From an uncultured Verrucomicrobiae bacterium (GTDB lineage Bacteria; Chlamydiota; Chlamydiia; Chlamydiales; Rhabdochlamydiaceae), in the NCBI GenBank assembly GCA_963718565.1, contig OY970364.1, positions 1,216,001 to 1,280,000 on the forward strand: a stretch of 64,000 nucleotides of DNA, in the 5' to 3' direction. Positions 32,590 through 63,518 of the stretch are shown here, in pieces. The position numbers were made by a program, and so were the translations under genes. The notes under the pieces are model-generated. The model was not told the origin of the DNA. It saw only the letters and a program-made list of their open reading frames with translations, and did not search any database. Position 1 is the first letter of the stretch; each line of letters starts with the position of its first letter.

Positions 32590-34650
32590 TTATCCTGATT
32601 TTTGACAAGTCATTATGCGCCACTGCAAGTCGGATAAAAATTTTGCATTACTTGATAAATGCTTATCTTCAGAAATCTCTTTTCTATGAAAGCGAGTGTT
32701 TTCAGGTTTTTGCGTAAAATACGATTCAAAAGTTTTGAAATCGATCAACTCACCATTTTTTTTCACAAAACTCCAAAAGTTAGCTCCATTTACATAAAAT
32801 TGCTCCTTTTGTAGCTTCTCGTATTTTACTAACAGCTCTTCACGATTTCTTTCTGCGATTTTACAAGGAAGTGCAAATGATTCTCCATCATCTTCCTCTT
32901 TAAAATCGATCAATTCTATTGTAGCGATAATTGGTAAATTGGGAGGTAAATAGGAGTCCTCGCCGTAGCCATATTCTGGGTGAATGTAGAGTTTTTTTAT
33001 TTCACCTCGTTTCATGCCTGTTAGGGCATGGGCAACGCCTGGAATAAACTGCTTGATGTTTTCGTTTTTTACTGTCCCCACATTCGATGTGCTCTCGCCT
33101 AAAACATGAAACGAATAATGCAATGTTGCATATTTAATTTTGGAAGTAGCCGGAGCTGCTTTACCCTGCCGCAAAACTTTAAAATATAATTTATCGTCAA
33201 CTAGTGCGATAATCGCTTTATGGGTGCGGAGCTGATGGAAATATTGTTTTGATTTTTCAAGATTGTCTACCCGCTCTAAATCTTTTTCAGTAACATAAAT
33301 TTCCCATTTCCGCTTGTGCATTTCTTGAGAAAGCTCGGGGCAATAGATACCGCTTTCTTCATCGCATGCTCCTTGCAAAAATGCTTTTGTTAAACATTCA
33401 TGAACATATTTCTCAGTTTTTATCTCTTGATGAATGATGTCTACCAGCCTATTTGCTATTGCTTCCTTATCTTCAGGTAAAGAAAGTGGAAGCGTTGTTG
33501 GTCGAGGTGGCAGATCTAGTTGGCCGGAGGACGTCGTTAATAATTTAAGCAGCGTTTTTTCCAAAAAGTCATTTGCATTAACAGTCTTTATAATCTCCTT
33601 ACGATTCACTTCATACATAGCAAGGAGAGCCTTGCTCTCTTGCGAGCTAGGTTCACAGCCAAAGTGGGGGAGTTTATAGGAATTAAATGGTTTTAACTTC
33701 CGCGATACAGCAACCCGTTTTCTTATTTCCTGATACTCATCAGCTAAACAATTAAAGCCGATAGAAGGGGGATGAAGGGTTTTCGGCGAAGGGAGAAGAT
33801 GCATACGTGTCATTTTGGAGAGAAATGGGAATTCCTCATTTCGATCTGATGCAAAAGCATTGGAAATCAACTCTTCTCTGGAAATGAGAAGAGCATTTTG
33901 CGTCCCATAACCCAATAAAACTCCCAATAGAACATTGTCATTTTTCAGAACATCATAAAATTGATCTTTTGCTTTCATTAGATCTTGTAATAAACTGTCA
34001 GCAGTAAGCGTGGGCCCTAATGCATATCGAAACAATGAAAGGTTTTCATTTACTACCTTTAAAAACGCTTGACGATTGATGCAGATGAGGTGCTGATAGC
34101 CATTTTTTGCGTCGAGGATTAAAAAAAAATAAGCCTTGTCTTCTGAAGATATGTTCAACGCTTGCCAAAACTCTACCCCCTTAAGAATACAAAGGGCTTT
34201 TTCATCGATTCCTGATAGGGCCTCGACTTCTAGAGGATACCCTTCTATGGACATGGGCTTATCGCCATAGAGAACATAACCGCTGAACGAATCCTTGATT
34301 AAAGCATTGAAGAATTCTTTGAGGATGATACTCTGCTCTCCGGACAAAGAATGCACAAATGATTTTATCTCTTTTTTTGAATCCCCCCAGAGAGATGCCG
34401 AAAATAAGAGCAAAACTCCGAAAATATAGAGGGAATTGCAAAACTCCTTGCCAGCAGAAAATCGATGATTTTGGCACCTGTTGCCAGAACCCGCATAGCG
34501 GGTTCGGTTGGCGGCGGCGAAAGCATACTTGGATAAGTAGGAGAGCCGCCGCCAAGGCGATAGGTGCCAACTGCATAGCCAACGCAGCCAAAAAACCAAC
34601 TTTTGAATCACTTCCGGTATAAACGCTTGCATAAATAGGTTCCTACTCAA
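32590..34650 (-). CDS. Exported protein: uncharacterised N-terminal domain plus Mip/FKBP-like domain; MITE inside signal-peptide region
   Basis: FKBP motif FIPGVAHALTGMKRGEIKKLYIHPEYGYG..PPN; paralogue of 60880-62736 (GYVLYGDKPMSI, NLSLFRYALGP, GVLLGYG). Confidence 0.78.
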   Translation of the reverse strand: MSRNLFMQAFIPEVIQKLVFWLRWLCSWHLSPWRRLSYLSKYAFAAANRTRYAGSGNRCQNHRFSAGKEFCNSLYIFGVLLLFSASLWGDSKKEIKSFVHSLSGEQSIILKEFFNALIKDSFSGYVLYGDKPMSIEGYPLEVEALSGIDEKALCILKGVEFWQALNISSEDKAYFFLILDAKNGYQHLICINRQAFLKVVNENLSLFRYALGPTLTADSLLQDLMKAKDQFYDVLKNDNVLLGVLLGYGTQNALLISREELISNAFASDRNEEFPFLSKMTRMHLLPSPKTLHPPSIGFNCLADEYQEIRKRVAVSRKLKPFNSYKLPHFGCEPSSQESKALLAMYEVNRKEIIKTVNANDFLEKTLLKLLTTSSGQLDLPPRPTTLPLSLPEDKEAIANRLVDIIHQEIKTEKYVHECLTKAFLQGACDEESGIYCPELSQEMHKRKWEIYVTEKDLERVDNLEKSKQYFHQLRTHKAIIALVDDKLYFKVLRQGKAAPATSKIKYATLHYSFHVLGESTSNVGTVKNENIKQFIPGVAHALTGMKRGEIKKLYIHPEYGYGEDSYLPPNLPIIATIELIDFKEEDDGESFALPCKIAERNREELLVKYEKLQKEQFYVNGANFWSFVKKNGELIDFKTFESYFTQKPENTRFHRKEISEDKHLSSNAKFLSDLQWRIMTCQKSG
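34429..34617. mobile_element. Chimeric MITE (GAGGG left end, CCGGTATA right end), 189 bp
   Basis: Near-identical to 21445-21580 over ~140 bp; flanked by TATA on both sides. Confidence 0.82.
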
Positions 34651-34850: not shown

Positions 34851-35228
34851 TTAATGTGCAAAATTTTCCCCTATAAAATAGGGACACCCATCTTCATTAC
34901 AATACCAAGTTCCCTTTACTCTATAAATACCAATATGGCCATTCGGACATGTAGGATCTCGTGCATCGATATAATACCTTTCGCCATTCCAGTATACCCT
35001 CTCTAGGGAAATCCATTGCGACATGTCATTTTGTATATAGGGCTGATTTTTATAAAAGCAGAGTTTTTCAGGGAGTAAATATGCTTTCCCATCTTCTATC
35101 TTCGAAATGCTGTTACTACACGCATCTAACAATTCGTTTGAGACTTGAACCCGATAAGCGGACTCATGTGCAACCAAAGCAAAGTTCAAAGAAAGGAGCA
35201 CTGTCGTTAGAAACATCAAATATTTCAT
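34851..35228 (-). CDS. Small secreted protein with C-terminal Cys/His cluster
   Basis: Signal peptide MKYLMFLTTVLLSLNFALVA; tail DPTCPNGH...WYCNEDGCPY; RBS gagg upstream. Confidence 0.8.
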   Translation of the reverse strand: MKYLMFLTTVLLSLNFALVAHESAYRVQVSNELLDACSNSISKIEDGKAYLLPEKLCFYKNQPYIQNDMSQWISLERVYWNGERYYIDARDPTCPNGHIGIYRVKGTWYCNEDGCPYFIGENFAH

Positions 35229-36310: not shown

Positions 36311-38285
36311 GTACGTCCTTAAAAACTCATGGCAAAAGTTGAAGACCATTTTGATCCATGCCAAACTTACCACTTATCGATCTTGATTGGGCACGGATCG
36401 AAATGGTCTTCAACTTTTGCCAGAGTCTTCAAGGAAGTTAATGTACGTGCTACCAGTCAAGGTGTGGCCGGAGAGGCTGTTTGATAACGCTCATGAACAA
36501 ATTGTGCTAAATCGATCGGATCCCATCGAAACCACCGACTCAAATACTCCCAAAAGCTCACGCCAAGTCTGGCGCATGTCTGCTTGAGCGTCAATAGGCC
36601 GTCTCGAAATTGTCTGCCCTCTACGCTTTTGGTAGTGCCAGAGATATTTCTTCGTTTAGCCACACCTCGGATATCTTGCTCACTGTCATTATTGTGCAGG
36701 GGAAGGCCGGGATGATCAAGCGCTTTTAGCATTTCTTCGCGGTATTTGGAAAATGAAGCAATGACTTCATTAATCCCTGGGCTTGTGCTTTTCATTGCAA
36801 CCAGTTGGTCATATAGTTCATGCACCCCTGCCTTACCAACATGCTTCCAAGCTGCTTCTTTCACTTTTTCATACAGGATCCAAATCGCCTCGCGCACTTT
36901 TGCAAGTTCTTTCTCCGCTTCAGCAGTGGCGCACTTTAATTTACGCAAGGGCCGTTCCATATGCACCCAACATGCTGCGTGGTCAAACACTGCAAATTGT
37001 CCAGCTCGGTCTGACAATAGGATCTGACCTGGCTTTAGGATTGTTTCACTGATAAAACCAACCAATCCCGCTTCAATGCATTGCTGTCGCAGCTGTTTGC
37101 CTTCAACCCTTAAGCTATTCAGCAGTTGGTTAAGCCCCTTCTTTTTTCGGTACTTTTTCCCCATATGTTCTTCAAGCCGGTTGAGCCAATCATCCTTAAC
37201 GCCACATTGGAAGAGATGCCATATGAATGCTTCATTGATCGCATAACCCTCTTTACCTTGGAGTAAAATTCTCAGGAAGTTTTTCCGTGATTTGCTGGAG
37301 GCTGTTGTGTAATAAGCAAAATACTCACCTCCTATATGCGTGCAATATACATTTTTGTGTTGATGCTTTTCACCAGTATCATCTGTTCGGATGTAGGGAG
37401 CTTCTTTAAGCCCAGCGGTTAAGATTTTTTCGCTCTCTTGGTGGTATGCGTCGGATTCATTGATGAGAATGTTGTGAACTTGCCCTTCAGAAATTTCGAT
37501 TCCAGTTCCTCTTAGAAGGTCAAAAAGCCCCGGTTCTGTCATCCCAAGAGCGTAGAGATTGTGAGCAAGAGCGCGCAATTGATGACCAAAGTGGGATCCT
37601 TGAACTTCTGGAGGCAGAGATGCACGCACTATACTACCATCGGGAGATTGCCAGACCTCGAGCTTATAGGTTATGTCCTTAGGCACAGTCTCTAGTTCTT
37701 GAACGACATAGGTCTGGTAGCCCTTAAAGCGAGATCCTTTTGGGATTCCTGTGGCTACAATGCGCACTTCCTGTTGTACTTTCTGTGGAACCATTCCTCT
37801 TGCAGTAGTCGAGTTGATCCTACCAGTATTATTACCAGGAGCTCCGCTCCTCGCCTTGGGGTTTCCTCCTCCTGGCCTGAATTTAGGTCTTTTAGGCGTT
37901 TTTGTTAGACGTGTGATTTCATCTTTGAGTTCTTGCACTGTCTTCTTCAAAGAGACTATTTCCTCGCTCTGCTCCTGAACAAGGACGACGATTGTCTGAA
38001 GCCAAGGAACAGCGTGCAGTTCTGAAGGGATCTTAGAAAGGCATTTGTTTGAGTTCATGCCAGAGCAGTCTAAATATAGGGCGCTCTGTTATCAAGCGAA
38101 AGTTTTATTAATGGGTCTGGGCGTTTTGTTCTGACTTTACAAGCCGCTCAATTCATACCTCCTCGGAGACCTGTGGCAAGCACTGAATGTCATTTGGATC
38201 CATGCCTGATTGAGATCGATAAATGCAAAGCCTGGCATGGATCCAAATGACATTCAGTGCTTGCCACAGGTTTTTGAGGACGTAC
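36311..38285. mobile_element. IS66-family element (single-ORF, ISBst12-like), 1975 bp
   Basis: Ends GTACGTCCT...AGGACGTAC; 8-bp TSD AAAAAATG (36303-36310, 38286-38293). Confidence 0.88.
36457..38058 (-). CDS. IS66-family transposase
   Basis: N-terminal coiled coil, IRTDDTG, LSDRAGQF, HAACWVH, PLHNNDSEQDIR. Confidence 0.88.
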   Translation of the reverse strand: MNSNKCLSKIPSELHAVPWLQTIVVLVQEQSEEIVSLKKTVQELKDEITRLTKTPKRPKFRPGGGNPKARSGAPGNNTGRINSTTARGMVPQKVQQEVRIVATGIPKGSRFKGYQTYVVQELETVPKDITYKLEVWQSPDGSIVRASLPPEVQGSHFGHQLRALAHNLYALGMTEPGLFDLLRGTGIEISEGQVHNILINESDAYHQESEKILTAGLKEAPYIRTDDTGEKHQHKNVYCTHIGGEYFAYYTTASSKSRKNFLRILLQGKEGYAINEAFIWHLFQCGVKDDWLNRLEEHMGKKYRKKKGLNQLLNSLRVEGKQLRQQCIEAGLVGFISETILKPGQILLSDRAGQFAVFDHAACWVHMERPLRKLKCATAEAEKELAKVREAIWILYEKVKEAAWKHVGKAGVHELYDQLVAMKSTSPGINEVIASFSKYREEMLKALDHPGLPLHNNDSEQDIRGVAKRRNISGTTKSVEGRQFRDGLLTLKQTCARLGVSFWEYLSRWFRWDPIDLAQFVHERYQTASPATP

Positions 38286-56956: not shown

Positions 56957-57182
56957 TTAAGAGATCAAAAAGTGGTAGATGTCTGTAAAGTCAAAATAAT
57001 TCGTGTAAACAACAGGCTTATCTCCAAAAAGGACATAAGCCCCCTCTTCTTGAAACATTGATTTCATTAACACACCGGTCACAATTTCTGCAGGGTTGAT
57101 ATCCGTCTCTGCATCCACGTCCATTTGGATTCAGCGAACGAATGAAAATGCCTTTCTCATATGATCCTTGGCAGAATTTTTT
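56957..57182 (-). pseudogene. Collapsed remnant of the small Cys-rich protein / large partner module
   Basis: One frame reads GIFIRSLNPNGRGCRDGYQPCRNCDRCV; an overlapping frame reads SMFQEEGAYVLFGDKPV. Confidence 0.6.
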
Positions 57183-57280: not shown

Positions 57281-58636
57281 GTGAAGAAGCTCATGTCGCC
57301 GGGTATGCATAAAGTCAGAAAGAAAATTCTCATTGCTGATCCTGATGAGCAAATTCTCAAAACCCTTAAGAAAAATAAAAGCGCCTCTTTTTATACTTTT
57401 GAACACGCAAAAACGGGCTTTGAATGCTTGTCGAAGCTAGAGACCTTCAAGCCCGACTTGCTCCTCGTCGATCTCATGCTTCCTCATATCCATGGGATGG
57501 AAATCCTTCGCAAAATCAAGACCGATCCTCGAACACACGATATCGGGGTGATTTTAACTTCAGCACATGCCATGATTCAAAACTATCGAGCTGCGCTGAT
57601 CTTGCATTGCGATTATTTTCTCGAGAAGCCTTTTGAAACCTCTCTTGTTTTTTCACTGTTTAAATTGTTTTTCAAAAGCAAACTTCGTCCCGATCCATTT
57701 ACTGGGAAGGAATCTTCGGTCGAAGGAAAACATTGCTACCTTCCAAAAATGCATTCCCCCAATTCCTACATCAAATTCTGGGGGACTCGCGGCTCTAATC
57801 CCGTTTCAGGTCCTGATTATGTGCGTTTTGGTGGCAATACATGCTGCCTTGAAATTCGTCACGGCCATGATCTTGTTATCATCGATTGCGGCACTGGCAT
57901 CCGCCCTTTAGGGGCGATGATTTCAGAATCGAAGCCAAAACATGTCCATCTCCTCTTAAGCCATACTCATTGGGATCATCTCGCTGGCTTTCCCTTTTTT
58001 GCTCCGATCTATGATCCGAATTGCCAAGTCGACATTTGGACACCGATCGGCTTTGAGAAAACAACGCGTGAGCTATTCACCGAGATGCTTGCCTATGCTT
58101 ATTTTCCCGTGCGCCTCGATGATATCCAAGCCAACCTTGTCTTCAAAGATATTCCAGAGAGGGTGCCCTTTCATATCGGCAATATTGAAATTAATTCCCA
58201 TTATTCCTTCCATCCTGGAGCAACAGTCTGTTTCAAATTCAAGGTCAATAAACTTAAATTCGGATATGCAACAGATAACGAGTTTTTAATGGGCTATCAT
58301 GGCAATCCTAATGCGATCGGCAAAAATCACCTTCTTCTCAATCCTTATCGAAGCATGATCGAATTTTTCAAAGGTTGTGATTTCCTCATTCACGAAGCTC
58401 AATATACCCCCGTCGAATACCAGACCAAAGTCGGATGGGGACATTCCTCCGTAAACAATGCCACTGTTTTACTCAAGCATACCGAGATCCCTGAATGGAC
58501 CTTGACACATCATGATCCCAAACATACCGATTCAGAAATGCTCAAAAAACTCCAACTGCAGTTCGATATTTTAGACGATATGCATATGAAATGCCGTCCC
58601 CGTATCGCTTTCGACGGAATGACAATCCCTTTATAA
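57281..58636 (+). CDS. Response-regulator receiver domain fused to MBL-fold metallo-hydrolase
   Basis: KILIAD, LLLVDLMLP, FLEKPF; FWGTRGS, GGNTCC, LSHTHWDH, GWGHSS, HHDP. Confidence 0.88.
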   Translation: MKKLMSPGMHKVRKKILIADPDEQILKTLKKNKSASFYTFEHAKTGFECLSKLETFKPDLLLVDLMLPHIHGMEILRKIKTDPRTHDIGVILTSAHAMIQNYRAALILHCDYFLEKPFETSLVFSLFKLFFKSKLRPDPFTGKESSVEGKHCYLPKMHSPNSYIKFWGTRGSNPVSGPDYVRFGGNTCCLEIRHGHDLVIIDCGTGIRPLGAMISESKPKHVHLLLSHTHWDHLAGFPFFAPIYDPNCQVDIWTPIGFEKTTRELFTEMLAYAYFPVRLDDIQANLVFKDIPERVPFHIGNIEINSHYSFHPGATVCFKFKVNKLKFGYATDNEFLMGYHGNPNAIGKNHLLLNPYRSMIEFFKGCDFLIHEAQYTPVEYQTKVGWGHSSVNNATVLLKHTEIPEWTLTHHDPKHTDSEMLKKLQLQFDILDDMHMKCRPRIAFDGMTIPL

Positions 58637-58639
58637 AAC

Positions 58640-58927
58640 ATGGATCTCGAAAAAATTCAGAAACTCTCTCTCGAAGAGAAAAAAAACCTGCTAGAGCGCA
58701 CGATCAAACTTCAAGAAGAGACAGGAGAACTCGCTGAGCAGGTCCTCATCGCGCACAAATCCTCTGGCTCCCAATATAAGAAGTCAAGCAAGGACGCGAT
58801 CAAAGAAGAAGCCGCGGATGTTACCTTAGTCGCTCTTTCCATTTTTTTTCTGGAAGGAGGAACCCCTAAAGAGCTCGAGAAAATCCTTAAAGCTAAAATT
58901 GCCAAGTGGAAAAAATTTAAAAAATAA
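58640..58927 (+). CDS. MazG-like NTP pyrophosphohydrolase
   Basis: KLQEETGELAE...EEAADV motif. Confidence 0.8.
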   Translation: MDLEKIQKLSLEEKKNLLERTIKLQEETGELAEQVLIAHKSSGSQYKKSSKDAIKEEAADVTLVALSIFFLEGGTPKELEKILKAKIAKWKKFKK

Positions 58928-59690
58928 TCGGTTTGCTGATCATGCTTTGAAAGGCAATGGAAACCTCTGCATTCGACTGCAACAACTGCAGCTTTTCTGA
59001 AATGGTCTTTAATGCTAATTCCGGCGCGTTGCATTCACTAGATAAATGCGCGAGATGAATATGTCTTAAATCACTGTGATGAACAAGCTCAATCAATTGT
59101 GCACATTCTCTATTCGAAAGATGTCCTTGACGGCTTAAAACTCGCTGCTTGTAAATTTGGGGCCGCCTTGAGGCATGGACCATAGAAGGTTCATGATTTG
59201 CTTCGACATACAAATAATTGCAGCATTGTAATTGCCCAGTGACAAGCGTTGTCACAAATCCAAGGTCGGTGCAAAAGCCAAGTTTTACACCGCTGGTTTT
59301 AATCGTGAAGGCGACCGGGTCCACAGCATCATGTTGAACGCTAAAAGGATGTATTTCTAAGTCGCCAAATTCGAATGTCTCACCCGTTGAGAAGATTTTG
59401 AATTTAGGACATTCGTTCAGAATCGCATAAATGGCTTTTGCAGTATCGCTATTTGCAAATATGGGGATTCCCATCCTGCAGCCCAAAACATCGAGTGCCT
59501 GAATATGGTCGGTGTGTTCATGTGTAATCAATACAGCATCGATCTCTTCTAAAGCCACACCGATTGCTTTAAGGCGCTCGCGAATCGATTTAGCACTCAT
59601 TCCAGCATCGATCAATATTTTTGTCGTCGACGTCCCCAAATAAATGCAATTTCCTTTAGATCCCGACGCTAGAGGGCAAAATCCATTCAT
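58917..59690 (-). CDS. MBL-fold metallo-hydrolase, YycJ/WalJ-like
   Basis: LASGSKGN, ITHEHTDHI, HDAVDP, TDLG, EANH, GHLSN, HLSSECN. Confidence 0.9.
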   Translation of the reverse strand: MNGFCPLASGSKGNCIYLGTSTTKILIDAGMSAKSIRERLKAIGVALEEIDAVLITHEHTDHIQALDVLGCRMGIPIFANSDTAKAIYAILNECPKFKIFSTGETFEFGDLEIHPFSVQHDAVDPVAFTIKTSGVKLGFCTDLGFVTTLVTGQLQCCNYLYVEANHEPSMVHASRRPQIYKQRVLSRQGHLSNRECAQLIELVHHSDLRHIHLAHLSSECNAPELALKTISEKLQLLQSNAEVSIAFQSMISKPIIF

Positions 59691-59850
59691 TGATCTACTC
59701 AAAATTGTTAGCGTTCTTCTTTTATCAGTAAGCAGGATTCTTCTCAACAATCCCAACTATAACACAGCAGCAGCTCCCGCTAGAAGCGGGAGCTAAGAGA
59801 AATGCGGCTTCGCCGCAGATATGAGAATGTTTTTGACAAAACAACACCGC

Positions 59851-60121
59851 ATCGATCGGATCCCCTCGAAACCACCGACTCAAATACTTCCAAAAGCTCA
59901 CGCCAAGTCTGGCGCATGTCTGCTTGAGCGTCAATAGGCCGTCTCGAAATTGTCTGCCTTCTACGCTTTTGGTAGTGCCAGAGATATTTCTTCGTTTAGC
60001 CACACCTCGGATATCTTGCTCACTGTCATTTGGATCCATGCCTGATTGAGATCGATAAATGCAAAGCCTAGCATGGATCCAAATGACATTCAGTGCTTGC
60101 CATAGGTTTTTGAGGACGTAC
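59851..60121 (-). mobile_element. Deleted derivative of the IS66 at 36311-38285
   Basis: 59851-60030 matches ~36510-36690; 60024-60121 matches the terminal hairpin ending GGACGTAC. Confidence 0.88.
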
Positions 60122-60165: not shown

Positions 60166-60393
60166 TTAACGTAATGATGACGGCGCCCAACATTTGGTGA
60201 TGATATGTAACACGGCCGTCTTTGTGTTCTTTTTACAGCAATGCCTGCAATGGATTTTTTCCGAATTAAAAATCTCCGTCCCATCTACAAGACACAAATA
60301 GCCGTTTTGAAATTTGTATCGCTCCAAGAGTTTACCTCTCTGAGCTTCATGGAATAATGCTTTTTTTTCTTTTTGGTGAGGATGGTGCTTCAT
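60166..60393 (-). pseudogene. DDE transposase fragment (ISNCY/IS4-like)
   Basis: YLCLVDGTEIFNSEKIHCRHCC motif; frameshifted and truncated. Confidence 0.6.
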
Positions 60394-60490
60394 AAACTGC
60401 TCTTTACGAAAATTTTTCCGGAAAAAGCAGTATACTAGTCTATACGAAAAAATTTAAGCGGGAATTACTGACTATAACATGAATTTTTGT

Positions 60491-60519
60491 TTGACAATGA
60501 AAACATTGCGCACTAAAGT
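60491..60519 (+). promoter_or_regulatory. Sigma66/70 promoter TTGACA-N17-TAAAGT
   Basis: Located 28 nt upstream of ATG 60548. Confidence 0.6.
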
Positions 60520-60547
60520 TTCCTATGTTTTTTAACTACAGGTATGT

Positions 60548-60898
60548 ATGTTGCAAAAATTATTCAGGATCGGCTTAATCTGCATGGCATTCTTCAATGT
60601 GCAAAAAATTATCGGTTCGGAATCTAAACTTTCAGAGGAATTTTTGGAAGAGCATTGCCATATGGTTTCTCAGGAAGATTTATATCTTGATGATCAAGGA
60701 ATCCAGGTAAATATAAATGGGACCTTTTATCCTGTGTCCTCCCTAAAAAGAATGGGTAATCAATGGTTAGCAAGTCTTAATCCATATAACGATCCACGTT
60801 ATCAATGTCCATGGGGTCATTCTCTTTGTGGACACTGTCACATGTGTCACAAAACCATTTGCCCTGACTATATACCAAGATGTGCAGCATCAAAATAA
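60548..60898 (+). CDS. Small secreted protein with C-terminal Cys/His cluster
   Basis: Signal-like N-terminus; tail DPRYQCPWGHSLCGHCHMCHKTICPDYIPRC. Confidence 0.8.
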   Translation: MLQKLFRIGLICMAFFNVQKIIGSESKLSEEFLEEHCHMVSQEDLYLDDQGIQVNINGTFYPVSSLKRMGNQWLASLNPYNDPRYQCPWGHSLCGHCHMCHKTICPDYIPRCAASK

Positions 60899-62736
60899 AC
60901 TCCGTCCTTTCAAAGGTGTGGATAGGTTGTATTTTAATGTGCATCTCTTGTCATGCAAAATCAATTTGCATTGATAATATTCAAGAATATGCAATTTTAG
61001 ACCAATTTTTTAGAATGACATTTTCATCTGAAGAATATGGTTATGTATTCGAAGGTTCCAAACCTATTTCTATAAGAAACTTTCTCGCTCTCGATTCTTT
61101 CCCAATATCAAAAGATTTGAAGTATGGGGAGAAACAATTCAATAATGCAGTCTTGGTCCGGCTAGCGATCCCCCTCTGGGATAAGTTTTGCGGTCAGCAG
61201 AAAAGTTTTGTTCTTAAGGTTATTACTTTAAATGGTCAAGTGTCGTCTTTTTTATCTCCTTTAGAAGTTGCCTTTATCAATGTTTCTCAACTTCAAGAAG
61301 TTGTTGAGAAAAATATCGATTTGTTTCGTTATATCCTTGGACCTACAAATACAATTCAAGGCATTGTGGATTCAATTGTTAATTCTAATCAATCTCTCAC
61401 CCACATTTTGAATCATGATCTTACTTTAATGGGCATAGTCCTTGGGTTCGGGTCTCATAATAGTATTGTGGGCGGAAGACAAGAAACAATTTATGCTCTA
61501 TCTATTTCTAAAGATTACCCCCCTTTTTCCCCTCAAAGTTATTTAATGCAAGATAGAAGCGAACACAGCCTAGACTTTCTCACTCCGGAAAGGTATGGCG
61601 CTTATTATTTAGAACTAGCAGGAGGAAATGATATTAATTTTAGAGTAGATTTTCCTCGACTCCAACCCCAAGCGGGATTTATTAATTTAATAGATGAACT
61701 GCATAGCATAGATCAACTAGAGGAACAAATCCTTCCTACTCTTTGGCAAGAACCTAAGTTCGTTTTCGGTGCCTTTAAAGGGGGGGCACCAAATCAACCA
61801 TTCTTTAAACAGCTGTGCGAAACACAAAAGAAAATTCGTTCTCTTCTTAACCATTCTCATTTTCTTGAATATGTATTGGAAAAAATTAATAAAGAACGTC
61901 CTGTGATTCGAATAAAAAAAGCAATTTCTAACAATTCATTTTCAATATCTTCAGAACTGTCCTCAGATATCTGGAATGAAATTCTACATAGCGTTGCCAA
62001 TCAATTTTCAGATAAAGAAAAGAAATCTGCTTTTATTAAAGCATTTAATCATCCAAGCAACAGTTATTGCAATCCCCCAACTATGATGGGCGTTTCAAAG
62101 GCTGCTTTAGAAGGATTAAAAAAAGCCAGAAGTAATCTCGCAAAGGCAGATCTGCAATTTGAGAAATTGTCACAAGACAGTGCATTGAAGGAACTTGTCT
62201 TTAAGCAGTTATATTTTAAAACTATTCTTCCAGGTAATGAAGAAAAATTGGGAAAAGAAGATCGAGTCCGCATCGGATTTGTAATTGAAGATATGGAAGA
62301 GAATATTCTTTTTGCCAACCATGATACTTGGGTACATCTTTCAGAAACTTTTCCCGGATTTGCCCATGGATTACAAGAAATGCATGTGCAAGAAAAGCGC
62401 ATTCTTTTTATTCATCCAGCATTAGCATATGGCGCTTTAACAAGCCTGCCTCCTTGTTCATCTCTTATGATCAAAGTGCAATTATTAGATATCGATTCAC
62501 AAAGTTTAGGAACGCTACTTCCCTTGAAGCCTCTTAACTTAAATTGGGTGCAAGACTCCTCTTTTTATAACAACATTGAAGAATCGCTTATTCAACAACC
62601 CTACTTTTCTGGCTTTTTTTACCGTCAAATGTTTAATAAAATGAATCAATCAAATTCATTGTCTCGAAAAGATAATTCAAAGTTCAAGTTATTTTCAGAA
62701 GAAGACCCCTTGAATGAAACTGTATACCAGAAGTGA
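60880..62736 (+). CDS. Exported protein: uncharacterised N-terminal domain plus Mip/FKBP-like domain
   Basis: GYVFEGSKPISI, NIDLFRYILGP, GIVLGFG; FKBP motif FPGFAHGLQEMHVQEKRILFIHPALAYG..LPP. Confidence 0.8.
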   Translation: MCSIKINSVLSKVWIGCILMCISCHAKSICIDNIQEYAILDQFFRMTFSSEEYGYVFEGSKPISIRNFLALDSFPISKDLKYGEKQFNNAVLVRLAIPLWDKFCGQQKSFVLKVITLNGQVSSFLSPLEVAFINVSQLQEVVEKNIDLFRYILGPTNTIQGIVDSIVNSNQSLTHILNHDLTLMGIVLGFGSHNSIVGGRQETIYALSISKDYPPFSPQSYLMQDRSEHSLDFLTPERYGAYYLELAGGNDINFRVDFPRLQPQAGFINLIDELHSIDQLEEQILPTLWQEPKFVFGAFKGGAPNQPFFKQLCETQKKIRSLLNHSHFLEYVLEKINKERPVIRIKKAISNNSFSISSELSSDIWNEILHSVANQFSDKEKKSAFIKAFNHPSNSYCNPPTMMGVSKAALEGLKKARSNLAKADLQFEKLSQDSALKELVFKQLYFKTILPGNEEKLGKEDRVRIGFVIEDMEENILFANHDTWVHLSETFPGFAHGLQEMHVQEKRILFIHPALAYGALTSLPPCSSLMIKVQLLDIDSQSLGTLLPLKPLNLNWVQDSSFYNNIEESLIQQPYFSGFFYRQMFNKMNQSNSLSRKDNSKFKLFSEEDPLNETVYQK

Positions 62737-62939
62737 TTAAGAAAAAATTCATATTTTAAATCGATGAATACATATCATTCGTTTAAACAATCGAAGTCCA
62801 GAACAAAACTCATTTGTTTTTCTAAAAGAAAAAATAAAATTTTGACAAAATACGTAAAAAATGTTTTAAACATTTAATATAGGTTCTTATATTTCAAGAA
62901 TCTTGAGTTAATAAATTTATAATAGGTAAGAAAAGAAAT

Positions 62940-63112
62940 TATACCGAAACAATATGAAGAATCGAAATTTTGGCAAAGCTGGCGCCCAGAGTTTGAACCA
63001 GCGAAGCGACGTCGAAGCAGCGCAACTTGAATAAGTTGTGCGATGCAGGCGGGTTCAAAATCTGGGATGTCCAGCGCAGCCAAAAACCGATTCTTCATGT
63101 TGTTTCGGTATA
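62940..63112. mobile_element. Palindromic MITE-like repeat, TATACCGA-ended family
   Basis: TIR tataccgaaacaatatgaagaatcg / cgattcttcatgttgtttcggtata; core matches 6275-6520. Confidence 0.82.
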
Positions 63113-63125
63113 AAGGAGATAAGAT

Positions 63126-63518
63126 ATGATTAGATCAGGTGAAGAAATATTAGCGGACATCGATGGAACTCTTGACCAGCTCATTGAAAATGCTGACGTG
63201 CTTAAGCAGATCTCGCTAACCACGTTGTATGTAAACGAGGTCGAAGCTCTGCAAAAAACGCAGGAAAGCTTGCTCGCGCGCCTCGTTCATATGAACGATT
63301 TTTTAAAAAGTCAAAAGCTGGAAGAAAGTCAAGAACCGTTTGAAAGCATTGAGAAGAAGATCCTGCGTTTTGGCAAATTAAATGCGCAGATTATCCACCA
63401 TGCCGCTGCTAAAATGAGACGCGCGAAAAAAAGCCGACAGCCCCATGTGCGGCCGCATCGCAGAAAAGTTAAAGTCCGTTCTCTAAAAACTGAGGAGACT
63501 GCGAATCCCCTCTTCTAG
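63126..63518 (+). CDS. Hypothetical protein
   Basis: RBS AAGGAG; helical EEILADIDGTLDQLIENA...LQKTQESLLA, basic tail. Confidence 0.65.
   Translation: MIRSGEEILADIDGTLDQLIENADVLKQISLTTLYVNEVEALQKTQESLLARLVHMNDFLKSQKLEESQEPFESIEKKILRFGKLNAQIIHHAAAKMRRAKKSRQPHVRPHRRKVKVRSLKTEETANPLF

Follow-up and report, generated by a model that had tools for sequence, protein, structure and literature searches.

We analyzed a 64,000-nucleotide stretch of the genome of an uncultured chlamydial bacterium (Rhabdochlamydiaceae; assembly GCA_963718565.1, contig OY970364.1, positions 1,216,001–1,280,000 of the forward strand; hereafter the window), focusing on two adjacent genes, the first of which encodes a small protein with a Cys/His-rich tail and the second a large protein that joins an N-terminal domain of no named family (the N-domain) to a C-terminal FKBP-type domain. 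We conclude with confidence that the two genes form a self-contained, often translationally coupled operon, and that its two exported products have been kept together over many rounds of duplication. As to what the operon does, we favor, tentatively and with somewhat less than even confidence, an exported complex in the envelope in which the zinc-ribbon protein is bound by its cognate N-domain protein, which would hold it or mature it, with the FKBP domain adding foldase capacity. The pair had been picked out, as a recurrent two-gene module, by an earlier reading of the window that used no database searches (the sequence-only reading).

A pattern scan of one genome per species yielded 77 loci, all of them in chlamydial metagenome-assembled genomes (MAGs) or in MAGs that carry the same genes under the labels Verrucomicrobia, Acidobacteria or bacterium. 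We built an N-domain profile from 75 sequences (alignment A2), iterated a small-protein profile to 66 open reading frames (ORFs), and counted adjacency for N-domain genes with at least 450 nucleotides (nt) of upstream DNA. The small gene lay directly upstream, on the same strand, of 57 of the 77 N-domain genes, and an N-domain gene lay downstream of 57 of the 62 small genes, which bears out the proposed recurrence of the module. Spacing was tight: among the 51 pairs with a predicted start, 24 overlapped or lay within 10 nt of each other, 8 of these 24 with a 4-nt overlap. Subunits of one complex are often translationally coupled in this way. No third gene was conserved near the pair in the 77 loci, the most recurrent neighbor cluster occurring in only 11, and no exporter or protease was conserved there either. 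In the locus that was checked (L059), the neighbor cluster follows directly after a short N-domain frame, and we therefore read its members as the C-terminal pieces of split large genes.

Of 300 sampled genomes of the phylum, 130 matched the N-domain profile and 128 that of the small protein; 113 had both genes, 17 the N-domain only, 15 the small protein only and 155 neither, counts that are not independent because the sampled genomes are kin. Neither gene was found in two families of the phylum (f4, 0 of 29 genomes, and f30, 0 of 11). Copies per genome reached at least 9 scored matches for the N-domain, with up to 27 candidates (of which the best 8 were scored), and up to 15 matches, with up to 32 candidates, for the small protein. 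The N-domain profile matched 2018 clusters at 50% identity in a large protein library. For the 122 relatives of the large protein of the pair introduced above (copy 1), the sources give only the names FKBP-type isomerase or hypothetical protein.

The two genes have also diverged together. Pairwise distances in one protein correlate with those in the other (Mantel r=0.82, reached by none of 999 permutations), and on a tree of 60 N-domains the class of the partner's tail (defined below) changes 15 times, whereas shuffles gave 36 changes on average and never fewer than 27. On the same tree the short N-domain forms with classical CxxC partners make up a well-supported group apart from the rest. 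This co-divergence shows that the pairs duplicate and diverge as units, and is not by itself proof of binding.

The N-domain ORFs in the loci comprised 50 with an FkpA-like C-terminal part, 23 short forms of ~250–350 amino acids (aa) without that part, 5 split forms, and 4 cut by contig ends. A small gene was found upstream of 12 of 21 FKBP-less forms versus 37 of 46 fused forms. Because FKBP-less N-domain proteins also have an upstream small gene, we take the core unit to be the small protein plus the N-domain; the FKBP domain is an accessory, and the isomerase label covers only this accessory domain. In five loci (L059:4001-5773, L031, L060 and others) the N-domain and the FKBP part are encoded in two frames next to each other, either split genes or frameshifted pseudogenes. 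One protein of 861 aa (P0199) has, by eye, two FKBP-like regions after its N-domain (PGFALG...HPDLAHG and RGFKKG...HPEWGF), so the accessory part varies in copy number.

Both products look exported, with the Sec pathway as the predicted route. A signal-like hydrophobic N-terminus was seen in 69 of 78 large-protein ORFs of the family, and an N-terminal Met with basic residues and a hydrophobic stretch in 55 of 66 small-protein ORFs, in keeping with the export that had been claimed for both; a lipobox-like site was found in 14 of 79 large proteins, a minority. The N-domain is modeled as an alpha/beta domain (predicted local-distance difference test score [pLDDT] 88.9, predicted template-modeling score 0.87) with a poorly defined loop at model residues ~181–230 (block pLDDT 59–66). 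In 75 N-domains with a mean column identity of 29%, K61, P62, L183, G185, L188, G189, G191 and N194 are invariant and Y55, F149, G154, R200, E202 and E273 near-invariant, with a Gly-rich loop of the form LG[FY]G..N.

The sequence-only reading had called this domain novel, and the searches agree. Pfam gave it no family in the two window large proteins (first 450 residues) or in 25 distant relatives, matching only FKBP_C where present, and NCBIfam, PADLOC and PHROGs gave nothing for it. Foldseek comparison with solved structures gave a best E of 0.3 and nothing resembling the domain, its structure found nothing in BFVD, and its profile matched no PDB chain at E<0.1. A likeness to DUF3793 that had been suggested found no support, hmmscan giving no such match at E<=1 in both large proteins or at E<=0.1 in 25 relatives. 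The FKBP assignment, including its FkpA/Mip-like helix, held: FKBP_C exceeds its Pfam cut-off in both window large proteins (Table 1), the helical stretch before the domain aligns with the end of the long FkpA helix, and copy-1 residues 410–539 align to FkpA 90–224 (E=5e-4). The Tyr-Gly of the FKBP pocket is kept, Y517 and G518 being invariant in alignment A1. A family scan of the C-terminal 219 aa found FKBP_C only (29.3 bits), with no family for the conserved C-terminal tail.

The mature small protein is modeled (pLDDT 84.8) as a five-strand beta-barrel followed by the tail, whose block has pLDDT 88–92 and no regular secondary structure. The only near-invariant features of the protein are Cys/His ligands; in 63 small proteins the first tail Cys and the Cys of 'MCHKT' are near-invariant. 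Tails of class A (copy 1) read C-x2-G-H-x2-C-x3-C-x2-C-H-x3-C...C, those of class B have 8–9 Cys, those of class C read C-x-N-G-H...C-G-G-C...C...C-x-C, those of class D (the second window copy) C-P-N-G-H...C-x4-C-P, and those of class E, the most distant members, plain CxxC...CxxC. Across the family the tails follow a zinc-ribbon knuckle pattern, C-x2-(C or G-H)...C-x2-5-C, that is, two knuckles with four Cys/His ligands, and nine partners have CxxC...CxxC tails. The count of Cys plus conserved His is 4 or 8, which fits one or two zinc sites; the tail may bind metal. These counts and the zinc-ribbon patterns of distant members lend indirect support to the metal-related role that the sequence-only reading had offered among its options.

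That reading had also supposed a diversifying Cys-Pro tail, which we can set aside: in each orthologous class compared, conservation is higher in the tail than in the beta part (0.48 vs 0.35, 0.63 vs 0.52, 0.49 vs 0.27), so the tail is not hypervariable and the difference lies between paralogue classes. Cys-Pro in the tail was considered as a mark of an FKBP substrate and rejected, CP being found also in tails of partners of FKBP-less N-domain proteins; CP is the usual wording of a zinc knuckle. Two small proteins paired with short N-domain forms (L081:3477-3779 and L087:3494-3907) end in W-x-C-x2-C-x3-N-x6-C-x2-C, which we take to be the spacing of RanBP2-type zinc fingers, a mostly eukaryotic module that here stands behind a signal peptide. 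Like the N-domain, the small protein is an orphan. The structure search gave no fold match for barrel or tail, the profile found nothing among PDB sequences at E<0.1, Pfam found nothing in the two window small proteins, NCBIfam, PADLOC and PHROGs gave nothing, and the Atlas gave no usable match; the sources name the small proteins hypothetical, with no Pfam domain on record for any.

In the mechanism that we tentatively favor, the operon would be specific to environmental chlamydiae, and its two products, exported through Sec, would work jointly in the periplasm or envelope. Of these, the small one would be a beta-barrel with a Cys/His module of the zinc-ribbon type, which would provide one or two metal sites. 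The N-domain, a new alpha/beta domain, would be its dedicated partner, binding it and then holding or maturing it, and the FkpA/Mip-type helix and FKBP domain, fused in about two-thirds of family members, would add general foldase or chaperone capacity.

Several points weigh against such a complex. Physical binding of the two proteins, like metal binding and the foldase/client direction, is something that we infer. No small gene was detectable upstream of 20 of the 77 N-domain genes, and although these 20 include second pieces of split genes and diverged or oppositely oriented small ORFs, several lack any candidate and look like true exceptions. No fused small and N-domain protein was found, an absence that we count as weak evidence: there were only two longer matches (177 and 195 aa), and P0135, with 117 extra N-terminal residues, showed no small-protein motifs there on reading. 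The Pfam zinc-ribbon matches among the 63 members (Zn_Ribbon_1 in 4, best E 0.013; DZR in 2; Zn_ribbon_3 in 2; Zn_ribbon_RanBP in 2, best E=0.044; zf-tcix in 1, 2.5e-4) all fall below gathering scores. A cysteine-built zinc site is unusual in the oxidizing periplasm, and the tail cysteines may form disulfides instead. The pocket Trp of FkpA aligns with Phe, and its Phe-Asp pair has no identical counterpart, which makes isomerase activity uncertain. Finally, conserved polar residues (K61, N194, Y55, R200, E202 and E273) at ~25% identity, together with the Gly-rich loop, look more like an enzyme or ligand site than like a holdase.

This last point leads to a reading in which the N-domain, as an enzyme of new fold, would either modify the Cys/His tail of its cognate small protein covalently or load metal into it, with the FKBP domain as an accessory. 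The invariant or near-invariant Lys, Asn and Glu and the Gly-rich loop, standing out against the low column identity of the 75 sequences, argue for an enzymatic or ligand-binding site; the near-invariant features of the partner are just the ligands that such an enzyme would act on, operon coupling is tight, and NleE, which methylates a zinc-finger cysteine, is among the weak Foldseek matches. Yet Pfam, NCBIfam and PDB profile searches place the domain in no enzyme family, the neighborhood conserves no exporter or protease, and we judge the reading unlikely. The stronger claim, that a new-fold enzyme with a zinc-ribbon tail as its substrate constitutes a new class of exported protein maturation (whether by covalent modification or by insertion of metal) that environmental chlamydiae have expanded into many cognate pairs, with FKBP recruited as helper, seems to us decidedly unlikely. 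A system like those for ribosomally synthesized and post-translationally modified peptides, which the sequence-only reading had entertained, finds no footing: there is no known maturase domain and no conserved third gene, and what the small gene encodes is a folded domain protein exported by Sec. Alternatively, both proteins might act in the host cell, the small one as a eukaryote-like zinc finger and the N-domain as a relative of eukaryotic DUF4504 (PF14953). The Atlas clusters nearest to the N-domain are indeed DUF4504 (feature scores 0.90 and 0.89), but a score of 0.90 is reached by chance in 4–10 of 100 shuffled proteins, and the DUF4504 Pfam model found nothing in 29 proteins by hmmscan or in this genome at E<=10, a search in which the control genomes gave nothing either. 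The most distant tails (L081, L087) fit the RanBP2-type spacing, but the Pfam matches to Zn_ribbon_RanBP are few and weak. The expansion of the family in some genomes and the failure to find it in family f4 would suit a role in the host, whereas Sec signals alone lead to the periplasm and lipobox-like sites are a minority feature; on balance we hold a host-directed pair to be quite improbable.

We are still more doubtful of the two remaining explanations. A periplasmic toxin/immunity or enzyme/inhibitor pair, in which the small beta-barrel neutralizes the N-domain protein or the reverse, would account for paired, co-diverging, multi-copy genes with class-specific partners, for copies near mobile elements in this genome, and for the barrel, small periplasmic beta-barrel inhibitors of enzymes being a known kind. 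But no toxin, immunity or defense family was recovered (PADLOC 0 families for 6 proteins; PHROGs, with only two matches above E=0.01; Pfam), in searches to which new families are not visible; the two proteins share one type of export signal, we know of no toxin/immunity pair that features an FKBP foldase fusion, and obligate intracellular symbionts have limited scope for contact-dependent competition. We give equally little credence to mere co-transcription of two envelope proteins that do not interact specifically, such as a general isomerase of the periplasm beside a structural cysteine-rich protein. Cysteine-rich proteins abound in chlamydial envelopes, and in the sources the large protein goes simply by the name of an FKBP-type isomerase; against this, pairing persists in FKBP-less forms and across many paralogue classes, with overlapping stop and start codons, and the genome has a separate FKBP match in a Mip-sized open frame (262 aa; G000:1594573, G000 being our handle for this genome).

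For the envelope complex that we favor, known systems offer partial comparisons. FkpA and Mip are likewise exported, with a helix and then a C-terminal FKBP domain, but their N-terminal dimerization domain is replaced here by an unrelated ~300-residue domain without known fold. NCBIfam models NF008150 and NF008602 give only 24.1 and 16.6 bits against cut-offs of 215 and 198, with only the FKBP part matching, and the large protein differs further in the pocket Trp, in its extra conserved C-terminal tail, and in its dedicated upstream partner gene. Lif, which serves a lipase, and foldases of the SurA/PrsA type are envelope foldases encoded beside or dedicated to an exported client, and some embed an isomerase domain in a chaperone module. 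They serve as a working analogy only, no sequence or fold likeness having been found, and the client here has ~90 residues with a zinc ribbon and is not an enzyme. SlyD, a cytoplasmic FKBP chaperone with a Cys/His-rich metal-binding tail, is again a working analogy only; here the Cys/His module sits on a separate exported polypeptide. The most distant small-protein tails resemble zinc ribbons (Zn_Ribbon_1, DZR, RanBP2-type) in their CxxC...CxxC, some with RanBP2-like spacing, but most members have His as the second ligand (C-x2-G-H), many add a second set of four ligands, and the module is attached to a signal peptide and small beta-barrel. The zinc-finger cysteine methyltransferases NleE and OspZ act on a type of substrate that would fit the partner.

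Databases already list the large protein as an FKBP-type isomerase. What appears to be new is the paired architecture, a core that does not depend on FKBP, a partner of zinc-ribbon character and the orphan fold. Literature searches on Rhabdochlamydia FKBP, DUF4504 and chlamydial Mip-like or isomerase families, which covered articles in part, gave no description of the family, consistent with the sequence-only reading, which knew of no described system with this architecture. The covered part of PMC2811131 holds only a generic Mip cluster, and that of PMC9723776 never mentions isomerase, Mip, cysteine or zinc. Many genes of environmental chlamydiae are lineage-specific and of unknown role, and the pair is one of the larger unnamed families. 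With the isomerase label reduced to an accessory and a two-protein core whose parts have no known fold relatives, it offers a handle on chlamydial envelope or host-interface biology, and the N-domain is a good target for structure determination.

Returning to the window, the ORFs, their 19-nt overlap and the shared motifs of the large proteins were as the sequence-only reading had described them. The two window large proteins are homologous in the N-part (E=4e-16, 24% identity over 189 aa) and in the FKBP part too (E=3e-10), and GYV.xGxKPxSI, IN..VVxxNxxLFRYxLGP and G..LG(F/Y)GxxN are visible in their pairwise alignment. Compared pairwise, the two window small proteins show no significant likeness (E=0.39), but the 63-member family profile matches both (E=9.5e-28 for copy 1 and 1.4e-23 for the second copy). 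The closest named relatives of the window proteins come from Candidatus Rhabdochlamydia and other Chlamydiales MAGs. Both places at which the pair had been reported were thus found, but homology and profile searches of the 2.28-Mb genome (a single contig, C1) located four small and large pairs, two of them in the window, one at 923.5–925.8 kb (large protein 63% identical, small 41% identical) and one at 2195.3–2197.1 kb; all four full-length copies are paired. Beyond these, the genome has an FKBP-less N-domain frame (290 aa; G000:C1:1959754-1960482) and a partial N-domain (G000:C1:2202737-2203099), neither with a detected partner adjoining, and an unpaired small-protein match (G000:C1:1925751-1926002).

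Table 1. Features of the two window copies of the gene pair and of the mobile elements near them (positions are those of the window)
Feature	Position	Strand	Remarks
Promoter-like site TTGACA-N17-TAAAGT	60491-60519	+	Upstream of pair; 10/12 matches, best in 60200-63200
Small gene, copy 1	60548-60898	+	ORF 116 aa; signal peptide, beta-barrel, Cys/His tail; class A
Predicted Sec signal peptide, small protein	60548-60619	+	~Residues 1-24; read from sequence: MLQKLFR + hydrophobic stretch
Five-strand small beta-barrel	60653-60778	+	Residues ~36-77
Cys/His tail	60806-60895	+	CPWGH..C..CH.CH...CP....C; 6 Cys + His ligands; class A
Large gene, copy 1	60880-62736	+	ORF 618 aa; 19-nt overlap with small gene
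Predicted signal peptide, large protein	60880-60960	+	Residues 1-27; from sequence and aligned N-termini
N-domain	60961-61914	+	Residues 28-345; unnamed family; 75-sequence alignment, predicted structure
FKBP-type domain	62257-62487	+	Residues 460-536; PF00254, 27.5 bits vs cut-off 21.1
Conserved C-terminal tail	62488-62733	+	~80 residues; L..W..D..F...IE.S...QP.F.G.FYR, consensus of alignment A1
Small gene, second copy	34851-35228	-	ORF 125 aa; class D tail CPNGH...C....CP
Large gene, second copy	32590-34650	-	686-aa ORF; native start MQAFI at 34632, giving 32590-34632
N-domain, second large protein	33391-34368	-	Family profile E=4.5e-87
FKBP-type domain, second large protein, best-matched stretch	32911-33054	-	PF00254, 34.5 bits; residues 533-580 of 686-aa ORF
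Dispersed repeat like a miniature inverted-repeat transposable element (MITE)	34420-34570		Core ~150 bp; between small gene and mature part of large gene, second copy
IS66-family transposase, full-length	36457-38058	-	533 aa; DDE_Tnp_IS66 match
IS66-family transposase remnant	59725-60039	-	104 aa; upstream of copy 1; C-terminal residues of ORF 36457-38058 repeated almost identically

The promoter named by the sequence-only reading is present upstream of copy 1, but promoter-like sites in the region do not exceed shuffles (8 found versus 11.5 expected), and it is therefore a consensus match only. The insertion-sequence (IS) debris reported near the copies was confirmed, the window copies being flanked by the full-length transposase and the remnant. 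Copy 1 (60548-62736) looks like the sole intact pair among the four of the genome. The MITE-like repeat, which has 86 genome matches, many 94–98% identical (from the best 40 of 280 candidates, which were scored), matches in part on both strands and so contains an internal inverted repeat. It interrupts the 5′ end of the second window large ORF, in which it lies in frame inside the signal-peptide codons: the protein reads MQAFI, then the insert, then FGVLLLFSASLWG, where a 74%-identical relative (L062) has the uninterrupted N-terminus MQAFVFGILLFFSVSLWG. The repeat takes the same relative place in the 924-kb pair (G000:C1:923918-924065), so that two of the four genome pairs carry it at the large gene's 5′ end, oriented alike with respect to that gene. 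In the 2195-kb pair the small gene (G000:C1:2195340-2195594) is broken by one TGA and one TAA codon within its N-terminal part, leaving only a 63-aa frame without a signal peptide. Damage to three of the four pairs in an IS-rich genome fits ongoing gene decay.

Two further observations concern the DNA between the window copies. A 33-residue intergenic match to the N-domain profile at 56969-57070 on the minus strand (E=1.7e-4) is either the remnant of a fifth copy or due to chance. At 57281-58636 on the plus strand lies a gene whose 451-aa product combines a response-regulator receiver domain with a metallo-beta-lactamase-fold domain, and a second gene of the metallo-beta-lactamase fold follows at 58917-59756 on the minus strand.

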